DNA of 64,000 bases. Origin: Escherichia phage vB_EcoM_CUA3. This document shows positions 50,144 through 59,989 of the stretch, one piece after another. The notes beneath the pieces were generated by a model that saw only the letters and a list, made by a program, of their open reading frames with translations, did no database searches and was not told the origin of the DNA. How positions within the stretch are numbered: the first letter of the stretch is position 1; each line of letters starts with the position of its first letter. The position numbers and the translations under genes are program-made. The stretch lies in the sequence record PP410321. One strand, given 5' to 3'.

Positions 50144-53100
50144 ATGGCTACTTTAAANNNNATCCAATTTAAAAGAAGTAAANNNNNNNNNNNNNNNNNN
50201 NNNNNNGCCCAGTTAGATGAAGGTGAACTGGCTATTAACTTNNNNNNNNNNNNNNNNNNNNNNNNNNNNNNNNNNNNNNNNNNNNNNNNNNNNNNNNNNN
50301 NNNNNNNNNNNNNNNNNNNNNNNNNNNNNNNNNNNNNNNNNNNNNNNNNNNNNNNNNNNNNNNNNNNNNNNNNNNNNNNNNNNNNNNNNNNNNNNNNNNN
50401 NNNNNNNNNNNNNNNNNNNNNNNNNNNNNNNNNNNNNNNNNNNNNNNNNNNNNNNNNNNNNNNNNNNNNNNNNNNNNNNNNNNNNNNNNNNNNNNNNNNN
50501 NNNNNNNNNNNNNNNNNNNNNNNNNNNNNNNNNNNNNNNNNNNNNNNNNNNNNNNNNNNNNNNNNNNNNNNNNNNNNNNNNNNNNNNNNNNNNNNNNNNN
50601 NNNNNNNNNNNNNNNNNNNNNNNNNNNNNNNNNNNNNNNNNNNNNNNNNNNNNNNNNNNNNNNNNNNNNNNNNNNNNNNNNNNNNNNNNNNNNNNNNNNN
50701 NNNNNNNNNNNNNNNNNNNNNNNNNNNNNNNNNNNNNNNNNNNNNNNNNNNNNNNNNNNNNNNNNNNNNNNNNNNNNNNNNNNNNNNNNNNNNNNNNNNN
50801 NNNNNNNNNNNNNNNNNNNNNNNNNNNNNNNNNNNNNNNNNNNNNNNNNNNNNNNNNNNNNNNNNNNNNNNNNNNNNNNNNNNNNNNNNNNNNNNNNNNN
50901 NNNNNNNNNNNNNNNNNNNNNNNNNNNNNNNNNNNNNNNNNNNNNNNNNNNNNNNNNNNNNNNNNNNNNNNNNNNNNNNNNNNNNNNNNNNNNNNNNNNN
51001 NNNNNNNNNNNNNNNNNNNNNNNNNNNNNNNNNNNNNNNNNNNNNNNNNNNNNNNNNNNNNNNNNNNNNNNNNNNNNNNNNNNNNNNNNNNNNNNNNNNN
51101 NNNNNNNNNNNNNNNNNNNNNNNNNNNNNNNNNNNNNNNNNNNNNNNNNNNNNNNNNNNNNNNNNNNNNNNNNNNNNNNNNNNNNNNNNNNNNNNNNNNN
51201 NNNNNNNNNNNNNNNNNNNNNNNNNNNNNNNNNNNNNNNNNNNNNNNNNNNNNNNNNNNNNNNNNNNNNNNNNNNNNNNNNNNNNNNNNNNNNNNNNNNN
51301 NNNNNNNNNNNNNNNNNNNNNNNNNNNNNNNNNNNNNNNNNNNNNNNNNNNNNNNNNNNNNNNNNNNNNNNNNNNNNNNNNNNNNNNNNNNNNNNNNNNN
51401 NNNNNNNNNNNNNNNNNNNNNNNNNNNNNNNNNNNNNNNNNNNNNNNNNNNNNNNNNNNNNNNNNNNNNNNNNNNNNNNNNNNNNNNNNNNNNNNNNNNN
51501 NNNNNNNNNNNNNNNNNNNNNNNNNNNNNNNNNNNNNNNNNNNNNNNNNNNNNNNNNNNNNNNNNNNNNNNNNNNNNNNNNNNNNNNNNNNNNNNNNNNN
51601 NNNNNNNNNNNNNNNNNNNNNNNNNNNNNNNNNNNNNNNNNNNNNNNNNNNNNNNNNNNNNNNNNNNNNNNNNNNNNNNNNNNNNNNNNNNNNNNNNNNN
51701 NNNNNNNNNNNNNNNNNNNNNNNNNNNNNNNNNNNNNNNNNNNNNNNNNNNNNNNNNNNNNNNNNNNNNNNNNNNNNNNNNNNNNNNNNNNNNNNNNNNN
51801 NNNNNNNNNNNNNNNNNNNNNNNNNNNNNNNNNNNNNNNNNNNNNNNNNNNNNNNNNNNNNNNNNNNNNNNNNNNNNNNNNNNNNNNNNNNNNNNNNNNN
51901 NNNNNNNNNNNNNNNNNNNNNNNNNNNNNNNNNNNNNNNNNNNNNNNNNNNNNNNNNNNNNNNNNNNNNNNNNNNNNNNNNNNNNNNNNNNNNNNNNNNN
52001 NNNNNNNNNNNNNNNNNNNNNNNNNNNNNNNNNNNNNNNNNNNNNNNNNNNNNNNNNNNNNNNNNNNNNNNNNNNNNNNNNNNNNNNNNNNNNNNNNNNN
52101 NNNNNNNNNNNNNNNNNNNNNNNNNNNNNNNNNNNNNNNNNNNNNNNNNNNNNNNNNNNNNNNNNNNNNNNNNNNNNNNNNNNNNNNNNNNNNNNNNNNN
52201 NNNNNNNNNNNNNNNNNNNNNNNNNNNNNNNNNNNNNNNNNNNNNNNNNNNNNNNNNNNNNNNNNNNNNNNNNNNNNNNNNNNNNNNNNNNNNNNNNNNN
52301 NNNNNNNNNNNNNNNNNNNNNNNNNNNNNNNNNNNNNNNNNNNNNNNNNNNNNNNNNNNNNNNNNNNNNNNNNNNNNNNNNNNNNNNNNNNNNNNNNNNN
52401 NNNNNNNNNNNNNNNNNNNNNNNNNNNNNNNNNNNNNNNNNNNNNNNNNNNNNNNNNNNNNNNNNNNNNNNNNNNNNNNNNNNNNNNNNNNNNNNNNNNN
52501 NNNNNNNNNNNNNNNNNNNNNNNNNNNNNNNNNNNNNNNNNNNNNNNNNNNNNNNNNNNNNNNNNNNNNNNNNNNNNNNNNNNNNNNNNNNNNNNNNNNN
52601 NNNNNNNNNNNNNNNNNNNNNNNNNNNNNNNNNNNNNNNNNNNNNNNNNNNNNNNNNNNNNNNNNNNNNNNNNNNNNNNNNNNNNNNNNNNNNNNNNNNN
52701 NNNNNNNNNNNNNNNNNNNNNNNNNNNNNNNNNNNNNNNNNNNNNNNNNNNNNNNNNNNNNNNNNNNNNNNNNNNNNNNNNNNNNNNNNNNNNNNNNNNN
52801 NNNNNNNNNNNNNNNNNNNNNNNNNNNNNNNNNNNNNNNNNNNNNNNNNNNNNNNNNNNNNNNNNNNNNNNNNNNNNNNNNNNNNNNNNNNNNNNNNNNN
52901 NNNNNNNNNNNNNNNNNNNNNNNNNNNNNNNNNNNNNNNNNNNNNNNNNNNNNNNNNNNNNNNNNNNNNNNNNNNNNNNNNNNNNNNNNNNNNNNNNNNN
53001 NNNNNNNNNNNNNNNNNNNNNNNNNNNNNNNNNNNNNNNNNNNNNNNNNNNNNNNNNNNNNNNNNNNNNNNNNNNNNNNNNNNNNNNNNNNNNNNNNNNN

Positions 53101-54286
53101 NNNNNNNNNNNNNNNNNNNNNNNNNNNNNNNNNNNNNNNNNNNNNNNNNNNNNNNNNNNNNNNNNNNNNNNNNNNNNNNNNNNNNNNNNNNNNNNNNNNN
53201 NNNNNNNNNNNNNNNNNNNNNNNNNNNNNNNNNNNNNNNNNNNNNNNNNNNNNNNNNNNNNNNNNNNNNNNNNNNNNNNNNNNNNNNNNNNNNNNNNNNN
53301 NNNNNNNNNNNNNNNNNNNNNNNNNNNNNNNNNNNNNNNNNNNNNNNNNNNNNNNNNNNNNNNNNNNNNNNNNNNNNNNNNNNNNNNNNNNNNNNNNNNN
53401 NNNNNNNNNNNNNNNNNNNNNNNNNNNNNNNNNNNNNNNNNNNNNNNNNNNNNNNNNNNNNNNNNNNNNNNNNNNNNNNNNNNNNNNNNNNNNNNNNNNN
53501 NNNNNNNNNNNNNNNNNNNNNNNNNNNNNNNNNNNNNNNNNNNNNNNNNNNNNNNNNNNNNNNNNNNNNNNNNNNNNNNNNNNNNNNNNNNNNNNNNNNN
53601 NNNNNNNNNNNNNNNNNNNNNNNNNNNNNNNNNNNNNNNNNNNNNNNNNNNNNNNNNNNNNNNNNNNNNNNNNNNNNNNNNNNNNNNNNNNNNNNNNNNN
53701 NNNNNNNNNNNNNNNNNNNNNNNNNNNNNNNNNNNNNNNNNNNNNNNNNNNNNNNNNNNNNNNNNNNNNNNNNNNNNNNNNNNNNNNNNNNNNNNNNNNN
53801 NNNNNNNNNNNNNNNNNNNNNNNNNNNNNNNNNNNNNNNNNNNNNNNNNNNNNNNNNNNNNNNNNNNNNNNNNNNNNNNNNNNNNNNNNNNNNNNNNNNN
53901 NNNNNNNNNNNNNNNNNNNNNNNNNNNNNNNNNNNNNNNNNNNNNNNNNNNNNNNNNNNNNNNNNNNNNNNNNNNNNNNNNNNNNNNNNNNNNNNNNNNN
54001 NNNNNNNNNNNNNNNNNNNNNNNNNNNNNNNNNNNNNNNNNNNNNNNNNNNNNNNNNNNNNNNNNNNNNNNNNNNNNNNNNNNNNNNNNNNNNNNNNNNN
54101 NNNNNNNNNNNNNNNNNNNNNNNNNNNNNNNNNNNNNNNNNNNNNNNNNNNNNNNNNNNNNNNNNNNNNNNNNNNNNNNNNNNNNNNNNNNNNNNNNNNN
54201 NNNNNNNNNNNNNNNNNNNNNNNNNNNNNNNNNNNNNNNNNNNNNNNNNNNNNNNNNNNNNNNNNNNNNNNTATAAATATCTTTAA
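50144..54286 (+). CDS. 37: Long tail fibre distal subunit gp37 N-terminus, followed by ~4 kb mask (rest of gp37 and possibly gp38)
   Basis: MATL..IQFKRSK...AQLDEGELAIN matches T4 gp37 N-terminus; remainder not visible. Confidence 0.55.
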   Translation: MATLXXIQFKRSKXXXXXXXXAQLDEGELAINXXXXXXXXXXXXXXXXXXXXXXXXXXXXXXXXXXXXXXXXXXXXXXXXXXXXXXXXXXXXXXXXXXXXXXXXXXXXXXXXXXXXXXXXXXXXXXXXXXXXXXXXXXXXXXXXXXXXXXXXXXXXXXXXXXXXXXXXXXXXXXXXXXXXXXXXXXXXXXXXXXXXXXXXXXXXXXXXXXXXXXXXXXXXXXXXXXXXXXXXXXXXXXXXXXXXXXXXXXXXXXXXXXXXXXXXXXXXXXXXXXXXXXXXXXXXXXXXXXXXXXXXXXXXXXXXXXXXXXXXXXXXXXXXXXXXXXXXXXXXXXXXXXXXXXXXXXXXXXXXXXXXXXXXXXXXXXXXXXXXXXXXXXXXXXXXXXXXXXXXXXXXXXXXXXXXXXXXXXXXXXXXXXXXXXXXXXXXXXXXXXXXXXXXXXXXXXXXXXXXXXXXXXXXXXXXXXXXXXXXXXXXXXXXXXXXXXXXXXXXXXXXXXXXXXXXXXXXXXXXXXXXXXXXXXXXXXXXXXXXXXXXXXXXXXXXXXXXXXXXXXXXXXXXXXXXXXXXXXXXXXXXXXXXXXXXXXXXXXXXXXXXXXXXXXXXXXXXXXXXXXXXXXXXXXXXXXXXXXXXXXXXXXXXXXXXXXXXXXXXXXXXXXXXXXXXXXXXXXXXXXXXXXXXXXXXXXXXXXXXXXXXXXXXXXXXXXXXXXXXXXXXXXXXXXXXXXXXXXXXXXXXXXXXXXXXXXXXXXXXXXXXXXXXXXXXXXXXXXXXXXXXXXXXXXXXXXXXXXXXXXXXXXXXXXXXXXXXXXXXXXXXXXXXXXXXXXXXXXXXXXXXXXXXXXXXXXXXXXXXXXXXXXXXXXXXXXXXXXXXXXXXXXXXXXXXXXXXXXXXXXXXXXXXXXXXXXXXXXXXXXXXXXXXXXXXXXXXXXXXXXXXXXXXXXXXXXXXXXXXXXXXXXXXXXXXXXXXXXXXXXXXXXXXXXXXXXXXXXXXXXXXXXXXXXXXXXXXXXXXXXXXXXXXXXXXXXXXXXXXXXXXXXXXXXXXXXXXXXXXXXXXXXXXXXXXXXXXXXXXXXXXXXXXXXXXXXXXXXXXXXXXXXXXXXXXXXXXXXXXXXXXXXXXXXXXXXXXXXXXXXXXXXXXXXXXXXXXXXXXXXXXXXXXXXXXXXXXXXXXXXXXXXXXXXXXXXXXXXXXXXXXXXXXXXXXXXXXXXXXXXXXXXXXXXXXXXXXXXXXXXXXXXXXXXXXXXXXXXXXXXXXXXXXXXXXXXXXXXXXXXXXXXXXXXXXXXXXXXXXXXXXXXXXXXXXXXXXXXXXXXXXXXXXXXXXXXXXXXXXXXXXXXXXXXXXXXXXXXXXXXXXXXXXXXXXXXXXXXXXXXXXYKYL

Positions 54287-54297
54287 AGGAGAAAAGT

Positions 54298-54951
54298 ATG
54301 GAACCAAAAGTAGGATTTTCATTATCAGACCTACTTTTTGGACTTCTTGATAGAATTTTTAAAGATACTTCTTCCGGGAAAGTAGTTTTTTCCCGGGTCC
54401 TAGTCGTAATATTATTGTTCTTTATGGCATTGGTTTGGTATAAAGGCGAGTATATTCTAAACTTTTATAAAGAGACTACTTATGCCTCTTATACTGAAAT
54501 GATTAGACAAGACCAGGACAATAGATTTAAAATTGCGGCTATCGAGCAGCTCCGAATAGTGCATTCTTCTTCAGGCGCAGACTTCACAGCAATATATTCT
54601 TTTAGGCCAACCAACATGAATTATTTTGTGGATATGGTAGCTTATGAGGGTAAATTACCGGAAACGGTAGACGCAAAAAATACGGGAGGATTTCCGATTG
54701 ACAAAACGTCAGTAGAGTATATGGCGGGAGTTAACGGGAATTATTTTGAATCATCTACTGAATCGGTGTTTCTCCCTACAAAAGAGAAAACCCATTTCAC
54801 TTATATGTTTTCGTGCCCGTTTTTTAATTTGGATAACATCTATGCCGGTTCGATATCATTATACTGGTATGACATCAAACCGGATTTAGGATTTCCTAGA
54901 CTTTCGTCTATGTGTGGTCAGGCCGGGAGGACATTAGGTCGAACTCGTTAA
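54298..54951 (+). CDS. t: Holin T
   Basis: 217 aa; single N-terminal TM; collinear with T4 holin t (DLLFGLLDRIFKD..., YSFRP.N.NYFVD..AYEGKLP, SCP.FNLDNIYAG). Confidence 0.9.
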   Translation: MEPKVGFSLSDLLFGLLDRIFKDTSSGKVVFSRVLVVILLFFMALVWYKGEYILNFYKETTYASYTEMIRQDQDNRFKIAAIEQLRIVHSSSGADFTAIYSFRPTNMNYFVDMVAYEGKLPETVDAKNTGGFPIDKTSVEYMAGVNGNYFESSTESVFLPTKEKTHFTYMFSCPFFNLDNIYAGSISLYWYDIKPDLGFPRLSSMCGQAGRTLGRTR

Positions 54952-55223
54952 AAATTGGAGGTATACATCATTAGATAACGGTGTATATCTTCATACCCTT
55001 CATTAAATTGCTCAATAAGAGTATCACGTTCATCTTCAGTTAAAGACTTAAAGAGTTTATTAAAAGATAGGCTGTTAAGTTCCTTTCCATGCTCATTACG
55101 AATACCCAACTCATTCAAAAAGGCAATAAACTCATCACGGCGTTGCATGATGTCTTCACAATCCGTTTTAATCAAAATAGAAACAATAGTAGCAATTTCG
55201 GAAACGATTTCAATTTTAGTCAT
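54948..55223 (-). CDS. asiA: Anti-sigma70 factor AsiA
   Basis: 91 aa; collinear with T4 AsiA (IFAFLNELG..., EQFNEGYEDIHRYL). Confidence 0.85.
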   Translation of the reverse strand: MTKIEIVSEIATIVSILIKTDCEDIMQRRDEFIAFLNELGIRNEHGKELNSLSFNKLFKSLTEDERDTLIEQFNEGYEDIHRYLMMYTSNF

Positions 55224-55264
55224 AATATTCTCTTCAATTCAGTACGTCATTATCTGATAGGGCT

Positions 55265-55293
55265 ATATTAACATATCTTTAGGAATTGTAAAC
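55265..55293 (-). promoter_or_regulatory. Early promoter (GTTTAC, 17 nt, TAATAT) for asiA
   Basis: Minus strand GTTTACaattcctaaagatatgtTAATAT. Confidence 0.5.
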
Positions 55294-55437
55294 AGGTTCT
55301 TCATTCTTTTTAACATATTCCTGGTACATTTCTTCGATAGGTTCTCGGAACTTAAAATCAGCTCTTAGGAATTCCTCAAAGCACTCCTGCTCACGCGTAC
55401 GCATACCTGTTACAGTGTTCTCTAAGTTATGACTCAT
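55279..55437 (-). CDS. Small acidic hypothetical protein
   Basis: 52 aa MSHNLENTVTGMRTREQECFEEFLRADFKFREPIEEMYQEYVKKNEEPVYNS; not in ORF track. Confidence 0.35.
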   Translation of the reverse strand: MSHNLENTVTGMRTREQECFEEFLRADFKFREPIEEMYQEYVKKNEEPVYNS

Positions 55438-55818
55438 ANNNNNNNNNNNNNNNNNNNNNNNNNNNNNNNNNNNNNNNNNNNNNNNNNNNNNNNNNNNNNN
55501 NNNNNNNNNNNNNNNNNNNNNNNNNNNNNNNNNNNNNNNNNNNNNNNNNNNNNNNNNNNNNNNNNNNNNNNNNNNNNNNNNNNNNNNNNNNNNNNNNNNN
55601 NNNNNNNNNNNNNNNNNNNNNNNNNNNNNNNNNNNNNNNNNNNNNNNNNNNNNNNNNNNNNNNNNNNNNNNNNNNNNNNNNNNNNNNNNNNNNNNNNNNN
55701 NNNNNNNNNNNNNNNNNNNNNNNNNTCATACCCTTTACCCTTATGTTTCTGTTTACGCTTAGACTCTTTAAAATTTTTCTTCTTATCTTTATGGACGGAA
55801 GCCTTATTGAAATCGTGC

Positions 55819-56100
55819 TTAGCTACCAGATTGATCACGTAATTTCCTTAATTGATATTCAAGAGAACTGATAATTTCTTTATTAGTTGCAATATACATA
55901 TCACGTAGGAATGGCTTCAACCCTTCCATATTTCCATGGATTGTCTTAGAACTAATATTCTTTATATATTCATGGTCTAAAGCATCCCATGCCGGCTGGT
56001 TGACATAAGTTCCCCAGTTATCTTCCACCATAACATTCAGACGTTTAATATGGTTGATATGGGCTTCGATTGCATCAATCTGGAGTTGTTTAAGATTCAT
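55819..56100 (-). CDS. Hypothetical protein (arn-region)
   Basis: 93 aa ORF, starts at stop of upstream gene. Confidence 0.5.
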   Translation of the reverse strand: MNLKQLQIDAIEAHINHIKRLNVMVEDNWGTYVNQPAWDALDHEYIKNISSKTIHGNMEGLKPFLRDMYIATNKEIISSLEYQLRKLRDQSGS

Positions 56101-56588
56101 TAGTAAAGGTCCTCAGAGTAAAGTTCTTTTTCACTACCACCGCGTTCAATACGAACTTGATTAGCATATGTTGCAATAATCATTGCTTCTTCGCGAGTCC
56201 AATAATTTGAGTATTGGTCGATAAATCCTTGGTCATCACCGCAAACATGCTCTGACACAAGTTTATCACTTACTTGGTCAAGCACTTCTGCCATATCTTT
56301 TGAATAATGACGAGCTCCTGGAATAACCAGAGTCCCACCGTCTTTTAACTTAAAGCGATTGGCTGCGCATACAATTCGACGTTGGTATTTTTCATTGTTG
56401 TTCCAATAAGCAATCTGCCAACAGATTTCCGGGACCTCTTCTAAAATATCCTCTTCCGAATATTCAGCGTAATCACCGTAGGCCTGTAATTTAGCTGCTA
56501 GACTTTCGGGTGTCTCACGAGAAAGAGCTTTATCTAACAAGGCCATTCGGTCTTTAAAGGATAATTCTTTACCTTTTAATGGATTCAT
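56100..56588 (-). CDS. Hypothetical protein, 162 aa (arn-region)
   Basis: Clean ORF; motifs RIVCAANRF and [10 protein letters not shown] of unknown family. Confidence 0.55.
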
Positions 56589-56944
56589 TTCACAATTACC
56601 TTATAACCNNNNNNNNNNNNNNNNNNNNNNNNNNNNNNNNNNNNNNNNNNNNNNNNNNNNNNNNNNNNNNNNNNNNNNNNNNNNNNNNNNNNNNNNNNNN
56701 NNNNNNNNNNNNNNNNNNNNNNNNNNNNNNNNNNNNNNNNNNNNNNNNNNNNNNNNNNNNNNNNNNNNNNNNNNNNNNNNNNNNNNNNNNNNNNNNNNNN
56801 NNNNNNNNNNNNNNNNNNNNNNNNNNNNNNNNNNNNNNNNNNNNNNNNNNNNNNNNNNNNNNNNNNNNNNNNNNGCTCTTCAATCAATTTAAGGGAATGG
56901 GCTTCGCCGTCCCAGTTAAGTTCCATCGGGATCATTTGAACCAT
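56585..56944 (-). CDS. Hypothetical protein (mostly masked)
   Basis: N-terminal [23 protein letters not shown] and C-terminal GYKVIVK visible; frame continuity depends on mask length. Confidence 0.3.
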
Positions 56945-57261
56945 CCTTTAACACGTTGCCATAAAGTTTTCTGTTGAGCTTTATTAACACCAATTGAACG
57001 AATAACCGGTTGTGATTCCTGGTATTCTTTGTAGTCGGCTTTATAGACTTCATAAGCGGCCGGAACAAAGGTGCTGATGGCAGCCATAAAGTTCTTACGA
57101 ATTCCCATAGAAGCTTCAGAACCGCCACGGATGATTAAGTATTTACCCGCTTTAATCTTAACAATACTTCCAAGATAAGCGCCATGGTACCAAATATCCC
57201 AACCTTCTTGAGTAGGTTCTGCACAACGACGAAGTTCATTAACAATATTCAGCTTGTTCAT
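56932..57261 (-). CDS. Hypothetical protein (motA.1 position)
   Basis: 109 aa ORF downstream of motA. Confidence 0.5.
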   Translation of the reverse strand: MNKLNIVNELRRCAEPTQEGWDIWYHGAYLGSIVKIKAGKYLIIRGGSEASMGIRKNFMAAISTFVPAAYEVYKADYKEYQESQPVIRSIGVNKAQQKTLWQRVKGWFK

Positions 57262-57279
57262 AATAATTTCCTCAGTCAG

Positions 57280-57912
57280 TTAAATTGCGTTGGTTACGGT
57301 TTTGATAACTTCAGATGATACGTTTTGGAAGTCGATATAAGTATTCTTACCACCAGTCTTAATCTTAACATCAAGATTCAAAGAAGTAAACACTTGTTTT
57401 TCTTTATCGGTCATATTATAACCGAAGATACGCATCATTCCGTCACGACGGACTTCGATTTGACGAATACCGTTGGTACGTTTAGCGAATCGAACTTCAA
57501 GATTGCTACGGTTTTCAGCGATTTCACGAATCTCGATACGGTCTTCTAACAAAGATTTAACTTCATCAGCCAGTACCACCATTTCAGGAGTAACACCACG
57601 TGAACTGCGAGTTTTACGTTTTTCCAACATCTCTGGAGCATTTTCAGAAGCGAACAGGTCAGCAGCTTTTTGAACTAAGTCCATTGCTTCACCTGTAGCC
57701 ACCAGCCCATCGCCAGATTTTTCGATAAATCCTTTCTTAATCAATACACCGATGTTAGAGTTAACTACCGCAGCACTAAATTGCTCACTCAGGGCTTCAC
57801 GGACTTCGCCTGAAGTGATGAAGTTATGCTTGATGATATGTACTAAGATCGAAGCAGTTTTTTCATTCAGGGCGTCTTCAGAAGCTTTGATGATATAAGT
57901 AATTTTAGACAT
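57280..57912 (-). CDS. motA: MotA middle-transcription activator
   Basis: 210 aa; collinear with T4 MotA (MSKITYIIKAS..., NSNIGVLIKKGFIEKSGDGL). Confidence 0.9.
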   Translation of the reverse strand: MSKITYIIKASEDALNEKTASILVHIIKHNFITSGEVREALSEQFSAAVVNSNIGVLIKKGFIEKSGDGLVATGEAMDLVQKAADLFASENAPEMLEKRKTRSSRGVTPEMVVLADEVKSLLEDRIEIREIAENRSNLEVRFAKRTNGIRQIEVRRDGMMRIFGYNMTDKEKQVFTSLNLDVKIKTGGKNTYIDFQNVSSEVIKTVTNAI

Positions 57913-57949
57913 TTTAATCTCCGNNNNNNNTCATTTATTTGATAGGTCT

Positions 57950-57978
57950 ATAGTATCATGTTTAAAGCAGAAGTAAAC
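57950..57978 (-). promoter_or_regulatory. Early promoter (GTTTAC, 17 nt, TACTAT) for motA
   Basis: GTTTACttctgctttaaacatgaTACTATagacctatcaaataaatga. Confidence 0.55.
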
Positions 57979-58294
57979 TTTATTTTGAGCTCTTTTTCAA
58001 GAGCTCTNNTNNNNNNNNNNNNNNNNNNNNNNNNNNNNNNNNNNNNNNNNNNNNNNNNNNNNNNNNNNNNNNNNNNNNNNNNNNNNNNNNNNNNNNNNNN
58101 NNNNNNNNNNNNNNNNNNNNNNNNNNNNNNNNNNNNNNNNNNNNNNNNNNNNNNNNNNNNNNNNNNNNNNNNNNNNNNNNNNNNNNNNNNNNNNNNNNNN
58201 NNNNNNNNNNNNNNNNNNNNNNNNNNNNNNNNNNNNNNNNNNNNNNNNNNNNNNNNNNNNNNNNNNNNNNNNNNNNNNNNNNTTTGATAGGTCT

Positions 58295-58323: not shown

Positions 58324-58347
58324 ACTTTTTTGCACTAAACCCAAAAA

Positions 58348-58363
58348 GGAACCCGAAGGTTCC
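58348..58363 (-). terminator. UUCG-tetraloop hairpin directly after a small ORF
   Basis: Minus strand GGAACC-UUCG-GGUUCC followed by TTTTTGGG. Confidence 0.5.
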
Positions 58364-58468
58364 TTACTTTTTAAAGTGAGCTGCTATTAAACCTATAGCT
58401 AAGCCTGTCGCCAGGCCTAGGATAACAGCAAAGATACAGAGTAACAAGAACTCGACTCCAAGGCTCAT
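58364..58468 (-). CDS. Hydrophobic micro-protein (34 aa) translationally coupled to gp52
   Basis: MSLGVEFLLLCIFAVILGLATGLAIGLIAAHFKK; ATGA overlap with gene 52 stop. Confidence 0.35.
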   Translation of the reverse strand: MSLGVEFLLLCIFAVILGLATGLAIGLIAAHFKK

Positions 58469-59848: not shown

Positions 59849-59989
59849 TTACCATACTAGTGAATGAATAACCATAATAACATCGGAAATAAAAAGCACA
59901 ACTTGGATAAGCCCGAATATTACCCCATAATACAGTGCTACTAATAAAGCAGCAAGGGCTAACGAGTAGCCCAAGATTTTCTTAATCAT
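59849..59989 (-). CDS. Hydrophobic micro-protein (46 aa)
   Basis: MIKKILGYSLALAALLVALYYGVIFGLIQVVLFISDVIMVIHSLVW; between ndd and 52 (ac/stp/52.1 position). Confidence 0.35.
   Translation of the reverse strand: MIKKILGYSLALAALLVALYYGVIFGLIQVVLFISDVIMVIHSLVW

Follow-up and report, generated by a model that had tools for sequence, protein, structure and literature searches.

Small genes between asiA and motA in Escherichia phage vB_EcoM_CUA3 match the T-even arn operon and encode a two-part Arn.3 protein

A stretch of 64,000 nucleotides (nt) from Escherichia phage vB_EcoM_CUA3 (sequence record PP410321), hereafter called the window, carries seven small genes that are tightly packed between asiA and motA, all on the (−) strand. 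This interval is almost certainly the Dhakavirus copy of the T-even arn operon. The best overall explanation, to which we assign a probability of roughly 55%, is an accessory operon that probably serves counter-defense and whose Arn.3 protein is built from two parts, a short N-terminal module resembling CmdA of the CmdTAC defense system and a conserved C-terminal core. The gene cluster itself is already known, having been deposited and annotated with T4 names in JS10 and dozens of related phages. As a sequence feature the locus adds nothing, and it matters only as a pointer. The genes arn.2 to arn.4 are among about 100 T4 genes still without a function, the Arn.3 core is one of the more widespread phage-only domains, with thousands of clusters in phages from T4-type to phiKZ, and the CmdA-like module links Arn.3 to a defense system that specifically restricts T-even phages.

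A megablast search with positions 54900 to 57950 of the window returned 663 phage records, and the best matches were Dhakavirus UP19, JS10, MN04, and dhaeg, at 94 to 96% identity. The JS10 match is exactly equal in length to the query, and ungapped comparison of the two co-linear sequences gives 96.4% nucleotide identity over 2491 unmasked bases. Two stretches of the interval are masked in the window (55439–55725, 287 nt, and 56609–56874, 266 nt), amounting to 553 nt, in agreement with the estimate of about 550 nt in an earlier note on this DNA. Because of the high identity and the co-linearity, the JS10 record could be used as a stand-in for both masked stretches. Indeed, the corresponding segments of JS10 and other Dhakavirus genomes (EU863409, 162610–164592) are co-linear with the window gene for gene and show point differences only. 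Judged from these sequences, vB_EcoM_CUA3 is effectively another isolate of the species-level group to which JS10 belongs.

The gene order near 55 to 58 kb is that of T-even phages, where holin t on the (+) strand is followed on the (−) strand by asiA, the small open reading frames (ORFs), motA, and gene 52. In T4, the arn operon (asiA.1, arn, arn.1, arn.2, arn.3, and arn.4; NC_000866 161163–162833) lies on the same strand and in the same position between asiA and motA, which bears out the earlier note in taking this interval to be the place where T4 carries arn and arn.1 to arn.4. The order of transcription in the window is arn.4, a 116-amino-acid (aa) ORF, arn.3, arn.2, a 39-aa DUF7230 ORF, an Arn-like acidic ORF, and an asiA.1-like ORF (Table 1). 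The note had listed five ORFs of 52, 93, 162, 119, and 109 aa, all of which are present on the (−) strand, and had missed two more, the 39-aa ORF and a masked 93-aa ORF, which we placed via JS10. It had also considered the five to be unassignable to known families. Contrary to that view, the 93-, 162-, and 109-aa proteins are orthologs of T4 Arn.2, Arn.3, and Arn.4 (38%, 73%, and 78% identity, respectively), and the N-terminal part of the 52-aa protein matches that of T4 AsiA.1. The JS10 annotation likewise names arn.2, arn.3, and arn.4 at this locus.

Compared with T4, the window lacks arn.1, has at the position of Arn a very diverged acidic ORF that belongs to PHROG 8202 rather than 3151, and contains the 39-aa DUF7230 ORF and the 116-aa PHROG 14178 ORF as additional genes. 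Its Arn.4 has 109 aa, whereas T4 Arn.4 has 68 aa as annotated. Its Arn.3 is longer than the T4 protein by 10 aa at the N-terminus and is matched by the CmdA model with an E value of 2e-9, versus 0.0026 for T4.

The seven ORFs are real genes and not chance reading frames, given that they belong to PHROG families with E values of 1e-31 to 1e-73, have hundreds of phage homologs, and overlap through their start and stop codons. Successive genes of the island share ATGA or TAATG. The 116-aa ORF overlaps both arn.4 and arn.3 by ATGA, and the arn.2 start overlaps the arn.3 stop in a TAATG that is also found in T4. The gap between motA and arn.4 is only 18 nt long and contains a GAGGA ribosome-binding site. 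This short gap and the overlapping codons suggest that the island is probably one early or middle transcript that runs on from motA and is translationally coupled. In T2, a single five-gene transcript extending from arn.4 to arn has been described (2026 preprint on T2).

All of the island ORFs fall into strong PHROG families, every one of which is labeled “unknown function”. The description of the interval as an island of functionally uncharacterized accessory early or middle genes agrees with a June 2026 preprint, which states that the functions of arn.1 to arn.4 are still unknown. Clear homology to T4 arn products was found, as set out above, and those products are themselves without established function. 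A counter-defense role is suggested by the fact that Arn inhibits McrBC, by the host-takeover genes among which the operon is set, and by the absence of any arn.x gene from the fitness genes without known function that a T4 screen reported. In that CRISPRi-ART screen of T4, frd.2 alone was named in this category, which implies that arn.2 to arn.4 are dispensable on a laboratory host. The 2026 preprint also suggests that arn genes other than arn may be counter-defense genes. We infer that the general role of the island, as a set of dispensable accessory genes countering host defenses, has an even or slightly better than even chance of being correctly described in this way.

Arn.3 lies between arn.4 and arn.2, with one extra ORF inserted between arn.4 and arn.3. 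The protein aligns with T4 Arn.3 over 162/152 aa (BLASTP, E = 3e-85) and differs from JS10 Arn.3 at 6 of 162 residues, and its homologs carry the precomputed Pfam assignment PF26092. A word-indexed search returned 379 homologs at E ≤ 0.001, an exhaustive profile search returned 4352 representative clusters at 50% identity (E ≤ 1e-3), and tblastn identified the protein in 1603 phage records. These homologs occur in T4-type phages of many hosts, in Ackermannviridae, in Stephanstirmvirinae, in phiKZ (PHIKZ245) and other jumbo phages, and in some small phages. A scan of bacteria and archaea that covered 185,579 species, with one genome per species, found the core at only 10 loci. Set against thousands of phage clusters, this number means that the core is essentially restricted to phages.

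The conserved unit of the family is formed by the C-terminal ∼95 residues. Among 147 diverse representatives, H93, G120, F121, R131, L155, and E158 are invariant, and V72, A74, A75, R92, M98, Q119, D123, A134, A138, Q143, S157, L160, and Y161 are conserved in at least 90%. The family motifs RIVCAAN, GARH, QGFIDQ, TREEA, and the C-terminal SEDLY are all present in the window protein and coincide with invariant or near-invariant columns in alignments of 73 and 147 sequences. All homologs examined end at ...SE(D/N/G)L(Y/H) or at most one residue from it, with P0096 having one extra residue. The earlier note had pointed to conserved-looking motifs in the 162-aa protein, including GDDQGF, and these do carry the most conserved family residues A74, A75, R92, H93, Q119, G120, F121, and D123. 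Its further suggestion of an α/β nucleotide-binding enzyme was not borne out for the classical (Rossmann-type) enzymes, as no known nucleotide-binding domain was found to resemble the protein in fold or profile. The invariant Arg, His, Asp, and Glu residues would be compatible with a nucleotide ligand but are not evidence for one.

The AlphaFold2 model of Arn.3 (mean predicted local distance difference test score [pLDDT] 89.1; predicted template modeling score 0.71) has an α/β fold, wherein a β meander is followed by a helix, a strand, a second helix, and a packed C-terminal tail. The pLDDT is 91 to 98 over residues 51 to 140 and 151 to 160, 84 over residues 141 to 150, and 69 at the last residue. 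Proteins with two tandem copies of the core exist, in which the first copy is degenerate and lacks the Arg and Gln residues. Such natural duplications would be expected if the domain formed an obligate dimer with a site for catalysis or for a ligand, and they suggest that the core may act as a dimer. Among the tandem-duplication proteins of the family are P0001, an Arn.3 of 203 aa in which the CmdA-like N-terminal module is duplicated, and others, among P0178, P0181, P0182, P0202, and P0234, in which the core is.

Searches of Pfam, NCBIfam, and PDB sequences with Arn.3 gave nothing above noise, and no solved structural relative of the core was found. Comparison with BFVD returned only uncharacterized phage proteins and weak, unconvincing matches to “large polyvalent protein” fragments. 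The core model resembles no known RNA-repair enzyme and does not have a NADAR or macrodomain fold. In ten long Arn.3 fusion proteins, the extra regions are without a Pfam domain. The matches of Arn.3 to Prok-E2_B, DNA_gyraseB, and AcrIC5 were sub-threshold and were dismissed, as was the function “anti-restriction nuclease”, a label that appears in many records and has merely been propagated from the gene name arn.x.

The second part of Arn.3 is an N-terminal segment in which residues 9 to 40 match positions 2 to 33 of the 77-position PADLOC model PDLC04070 (PD-T4-9_B). This is the sole significant PADLOC match in the island, as no other island protein gave one below E = 0.01. PD-T4-9 is CmdTAC, a toxin-antitoxin-chaperone defense system (Vassallo 2022, 2024). 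The toxin CmdT ADP-ribosylates mRNA, the SecB-like chaperone CmdC is titrated away by the T4 capsid protein, and the antitoxin CmdA has an N-terminal helix pair and, behind it, an unstructured tail with LAA at its end. The CmdTAC operon encodes the proteins RCP66309-11, in this order, within a total of 1214 bp, and from the operon order and total length we infer that the model designated “_B” is CmdA. The sequences of CmdA are “widely variable” among CmdTAC homologs, which makes an N-terminus shared by Escherichia coli CmdA and coliphage Arn.3 more notable.

The PD-T4-9_B model is matched by 16 of 73 Arn.3 family members, and the scores depend on the allele (P0106, the best, at 2e-12; Bas36 at 6e-8; Bas38 at 6e-7; Bas35 at 3e-6; T4 as given above). 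In many alleles, residue 1 of the protein is aligned with position 1 of the profile. Helices are predicted by the AlphaFold2 model at residues 10 to 22 and 26 to 35. The module is present in 3 of the 147 diverse core-domain proteins, and it is an add-on in T4-type phages, the named carriers of which infect Escherichia, Yersinia, Citrobacter, and Shigella; several metagenomic proteins have it as well. A CmdA sequence was not found by blastn of E. coli genomes, tblastn of plasmids, two pattern scans of IMG/VR, or a profile search of the PDB, and a word-indexed protein search for CmdA returned only two Arn.3 fragments.

CmdA and Arn.3 both have a helix pair of ∼33 residues in their N-terminal part. 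Unlike CmdA, however, Arn.3 lacks the unstructured chaperone-addiction (ChAD) tail and the LAA degron for ClpXP. The remainder of Arn.3 is instead a conserved domain that is folded (pLDDT above 90), has no equivalent in CmdA, and terminates in SEDLY. Furthermore, neither an ADP-ribosyltransferase gene nor a SecB-like gene is found beside arn.3, whose neighbors are the 116-aa ORF and arn.2. A conceptual precedent for an orphan antitoxin relative that acts against an ADP-ribosyltransferase toxin is T4 AdfN (gp30.3), a NADAR enzyme that reverses DNA ADP-ribosylation by DarT1. AdfN has proven activity and is homologous to the enzymatic antitoxin over its entirety, whereas Arn.3 appears to share only a short, non-enzymatic module with CmdA.

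The invariant residues of the core (His, Arg, Glu, Gly, and Phe), its near-invariant Arg, Gln, and Asp residues, the SEDLY tail, and the tandem duplications suggest that the core is a dimeric enzyme or a binder of a small ligand whose substrate carries a phosphate, for example a nucleotide or RNA. In T-even coliphages, a CmdA-like helix pair is added to this core without the degradable tail of CmdA. In a speculative mechanism, the helix pair might attach Arn.3 to an ADP-ribosyltransferase toxin like CmdT, or to a related partner, while the core would act on the substrate or the product of the toxin. On the predicted model, Arn.3 could serve either as a stable antitoxin surrogate or as a protein whose helices bring the core to such a toxin. 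That a captured, degron-free copy of the toxin-binding CmdA helices targets a novel-fold PF26092 enzyme, which neutralizes a CmdTAC-type toxin or repairs the resulting RNA damage, is in our estimate quite improbable in this exact form, and any specific mechanism for Arn.3 is unlikely at best. If the proposal were true, one of the largest families of uncharacterized phage domains would gain a function, and Arn.3 would be the first eraser or blocker of mRNA ADP-ribosylation.

Several observations weigh against the favored explanation, including its proposed connection with CmdTAC. No experiment assigns a function to arn.2, arn.3, or arn.4. The likeness to CmdA comes from one profile hidden Markov model over ∼32 residues, and the other N-terminal extensions in the 147 family proteins match no PADLOC model. 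CmdTAC reduces the plating of T4, T2, T6, and 10 of 12 T-even phages of the BASEL collection by 100- to 100,000-fold. We compared the arn regions of two resistant phages (Bas35 WilhelmHis and Bas38 AugustSocin) and two sensitive ones (Bas36 Paracelsus and Bas42 AndreasVesalius). All four, together with sensitive T4, carry an Arn.3 that bears the module, no pattern of Arn.3 alleles separates resistant from sensitive phages, and Bas36 is nearly identical to Bas35 in the arn segment. Mutants of T4 that escape CmdTAC map to alt.-3 and not to arn.3. A CmdA-like module is also found in Klebsiella phage Geezett (Jedunavirus), where gp63 (locus L101, 2189–3151) includes FEERLGLLDKALTKETPESLAEKLQSY at residues 105 to 132 (PADLOC E = 2.7e-9) within an otherwise unrelated 320-aa, Pro/Glu-rich protein that has no other recognizable domain; the module may therefore be a generic helical adaptor. 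Outside the T4 group, no neighbor of the core recurs across lineages at ∼45 loci, and only a single phage subfamily shows an RNA-repair context. Lastly, what is said of the Arn-like ORF and of the 116-aa ORF, both masked in the window, comes only from the JS10 proxy.

Three narrower or different explanations were considered, each of which we regard as unlikely. Arn.3 may be a dedicated factor against CmdTAC, or against ADP-ribosyltransferase toxins more generally, whose helix pair stands in for CmdA as a stable, degron-less surrogate that binds CmdT-type mRNA ADP-ribosyltransferases and neutralizes them after CmdA has been degraded. Consistent with this possibility, the match to PD-T4-9_B begins at residue 1 of many Arn.3 proteins, the ChAD tail and LAA degron that destabilize CmdA are missing, and CmdTAC restricts only Tevenvirinae, the very phages whose Arn.3 bears the module; by analogy, AdfN offers a precedent in its action against DarTG1. 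However, T4, T2, T6, and most of the BASEL T-even phages have the module and are restricted nevertheless, the escape mutations lie elsewhere, so short a module also resides in a Klebsiella siphophage protein, and the large conserved core to which it is attached would be left without an explanation. The idea is best treated as a doubtful lead and not as a finding. Alternatively, the core might be an RNA-repair, RNA-end, or nucleotide-processing enzyme that allows recovery from RNA-targeting toxins, such as anticodon nucleases or RNA ADP-ribosylating enzymes, whether or not the module is present. In Stephanstirmvirinae, the core gene lies in an RNA-repair-type cluster, between a receiver domain for cyclic-phosphate processing (cREC_REC, E = 3e-14) on one side and a metallophosphoesterase (Metallophos_2), a T4-Rnl1-type RNA ligase (RNA_lig_T4_1, E = 5.7e-14), and an AAA_33 kinase on the other, with an ATP-dependent DNA ligase further downstream (phages alia and DE16, loci L007 and L008, and locus L057, 3450–6226). 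This arrangement is a hint toward RNA-directed chemistry, as might be the richness of the conserved residues in Arg, His, Asp, and Glu, and a few records give homologs the unverified labels “tRNA processing enzyme” or “polynucleotide kinase”. Yet the cluster is confined to that subfamily. Elsewhere, the core is surrounded by genes for replication and nucleotide metabolism (DnaB, thymidylate synthase, ligase, topoisomerase, dUTPase, NADAR, and NAPRTase) without a recurring partner, arn.3 does not adjoin pseT or rnlA in T4-type phages, and the predicted fold is unlike that of any known RNA-repair enzyme.

The remaining explanation takes the cluster to be unrelated to defense and to encode small host-takeover or regulatory proteins, such as modulators of transcription or replication acting beside AsiA, MotA, and topoisomerase, with the CmdA-like segment being a generic helical motif for dimerization or adaptation. 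The location of the cluster between asiA and motA, close to gene 52, would fit such a role, as would the basic character of Arn.4, its predicted AP2/WGR-like fold, and the occurrence of the helical module in unrelated phage proteins. In the Ackermannviridae (Salmonella phage kage, locus L004, 1–3282), the arn.3-like core gene is found two small ORFs downstream of the genes for the large and medium subunits of topoisomerase II. This order echoes that of gene 52, motA, and arn and may reflect ancestral synteny. On the other hand, polar residues are extremely conserved among phages whose hosts differ greatly, which speaks for a universal substrate, either a small molecule or a nucleic acid, over a host-specific protein partner. 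In addition, the T4 screen did not list these genes among its fitness genes of unknown function, and the anti-restriction activity of Arn, a product of this operon, is proven. For these reasons, a role outside defense seems to us a poor prospect, and an accessory operon that probably serves counter-defense, with a two-part Arn.3, is the explanation that we retain.

Table 1. Positions of the arn-type genes, the two parts of Arn.3, and the flanking genes in the window
Feature	Coordinates	Strand	Evidence
asiA (anti-sigma-70 factor), downstream flank	54948..55223	−	Pfam AsiA E 1.6e-22; PHROG 1166; 52% identity to T4 AsiA
asiA.1-like 52-aa acidic ORF	55279..55437	−	PHROG 5245 E 1.3e-31; counterpart JS10 EpJS10_0245
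Arn-like 93-aa acidic ORF, nearly all masked	55448..55729	−	Inferred from JS10 EpJS10_0246
39-aa very basic ORF, GTG start, 3′ end masked	55719..55838	−	DUF7230 / PHROG 1359; JS10 EpJS10_0247
arn.2 ortholog, 93 aa	55819..56100	−	T4 Arn.2 38% identity; PHROG 1844 E 1.2e-40
arn.3 ortholog, 162 aa, two modules	56100..56588	−	T4 Arn.3 73% identity; PHROG 839 E 6.8e-73
Arn.3 residues 9–40, CmdA-like N-terminal helix pair	56469..56564	−	PADLOC PDLC04070 PD-T4-9_B E 2e-9
Arn.3 residues 51–162, conserved core (PF26092 type), C-terminal SEDLY	56103..56438	−	Conservation and AlphaFold2 model
116-aa ORF, middle masked (119 aa from upstream ATG at 56944)	56585..56935	−	PHROG 14178; JS10 EpJS10_0250
arn.4 ortholog, 109 aa, basic	56932..57261	−	T4 Arn.4 78% identity; PHROG 1594 E 2.7e-53
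motA (middle-transcription activator), upstream flank	57280..57912	−	MotA_activ E 2.4e-38; MotCF E 1.1e-13; T4 MotA 51% identity

The other two orthologs differ in how closely they follow T4. Arn.2 is aligned with its T4 counterpart over its full length (BLASTP, E = 2e-21), and the protein is identical between the window and JS10. Arn.4, a basic protein (isoelectric point [pI] 9.7) of family PF26821, is aligned over the 68 aa annotated in T4 (BLASTP, E = 3e-39). Its model suggests an AP2/WGR-like fold composed of a sheet plus a helix, and its PADLOC match to REase_II (E = 0.018) is at the level of chance. The T4 reference (NC_000866, 162627–162966) has an Arn.4 of 68 aa and then a 133-nt gap before motA. 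In the window, JS10, Bas35, Bas36, Bas38, Bas42, and almost all other homologs, Arn.4 is 107 to 114 aa long, mostly 109, and the N-terminal 41 residues of the longer proteins are highly conserved. From these comparisons, the T4 laboratory strain seems to carry an arn.4 that is truncated at its 5′ end or damaged.

The ORF nearest to asiA, the same location as that of T4 asiA.1, encodes a 52-aa protein that shows 43% identity to T4 AsiA.1 (BLASTP, E = 4e-5) in an alignment confined to its N-terminal 28 aa. This protein matches the AsiA.1 family PHROG 3762 with E = 0.0074 and has its best match in PHROG 5245, which T4 AsiA.1 also matches weakly.

The masked 93-aa ORF upstream of it is visible only at its ATG (55727–55729). 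Judged on the JS10 proxy, its product is a fairly probable, very diverged homolog of the Arn DNA mimic. The JS10 protein matches PHROG 8202 (E = 2e-42) and, weakly and over nearly its full length, the Arn family PHROG 3151 (E = 0.0026), while T4 Arn gives a weak reciprocal match to PHROG 8202 (E = 0.0054), again over nearly the full length. An hhalign comparison of two shallow alignments gave 81 co-linear columns at a probability of 32% (P = 5e-4). The JS10 protein has 93 aa, a pI of 4.05, and 21 Asp and Glu residues versus 6 Lys and Arg residues; T4 Arn has 92 aa and a pI of 4.55. Both occupy an equal place in the operon, and their C-termini are similar, EDY(I/F)(D/E). No match of the JS10 protein to Pfam DM_Arn (PF22134) was found.

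The first 37 codons of the 39-aa ORF are visible in the window, and their translation, VINLVAKHDFNKASVHKDKKKNFKESKRKQKHKGKGY, equals residues 1 to 37 of JS10 EpJS10_0247, a protein that matches Pfam DUF7230 (E = 3.5e-12) and PHROG 1359 (E = 1.6e-22). Its GTG start overlaps the end of arn.2 and is preceded, 5 nt upstream, by an AAGGA Shine–Dalgarno sequence. The 116-aa ORF is without a T4 counterpart. Its visible ends, including the C-terminal GYKVIVK, match JS10 EpJS10_0250, whose protein belongs to PHROG 14178 (E = 9.5e-61). The first ∼20 residues of the 116/119-aa ORF (56876–56944) are also the N-terminus of the Arn.3 homologs P0021, P0022, and P0029 (MIPMELDWDG.GF..K.IEE). This N-terminus, held in common with Arn.3 homologs of other phages, suggests that recombination at the 5′ end of arn.3 gave rise to the 116-aa gene or inserted it there.

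The final codons of T4 arn.2 include CCAGGGAAAT, which is perfectly complementary to the ArcZ seed AUUUCCCUGG. The equivalent site in the window (55836–55850, − strand) is TTAAGGAAAT, which leaves 6 contiguous pairs, and unconstrained duplex energies for ArcZ pairing were no better than those of shuffled controls. The ArcZ site does not appear to be clearly conserved in this phage. The sequence TTAAGGAAAT sits 5 nt upstream of the GTG of the DUF7230 ORF and resembles the Shine–Dalgarno sequence of that ORF. An Rfam scan and a repeat search of the region revealed no Rfam family and no notable repeat.

Matches resembling MotA boxes (TGCTTNA, a spacer of 10 to 14 nt, and TANNNT) number 14 in the whole window, versus 5.0 ± 2.3 expected. 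One of these, inside arn.3 (56260–56284, − strand), could drive arn.2 and the genes downstream of it, or it could be a chance match. Another (59927–59951, − strand) lies upstream of gene 52 and is well placed for that gene.

The motif PWDERIHS, which follows the CmdA-like module in Geezett gp63, is common to many phages of Klebsiella, Vibrio, and Edwardsiella. Within the window, a small hydrophobic ORF of 34 aa (58364–58468) adjoins gene 52, at the place where T4 has motA.1. Between this ORF and the masked region upstream of motA is a perfect 8-bp, GC-rich hairpin (58346–58365; AAGGAACC-CGAA-GGTTCCTT). Flanked by T-rich sequence on both strands, this hairpin is likely a bidirectional terminator or an RNA-stability element. 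That masked region (58011–58282) covers the ORF between motA and gene 52, corresponding to JS10 EpJS10_0253 (75 aa). A longer mask (50144–54286) covers nearly the whole of a large ORF on the (+) strand just upstream of holin t, at the position held in T4 and the BASEL T-even phages by the distal tail-fiber genes 37 and 38.

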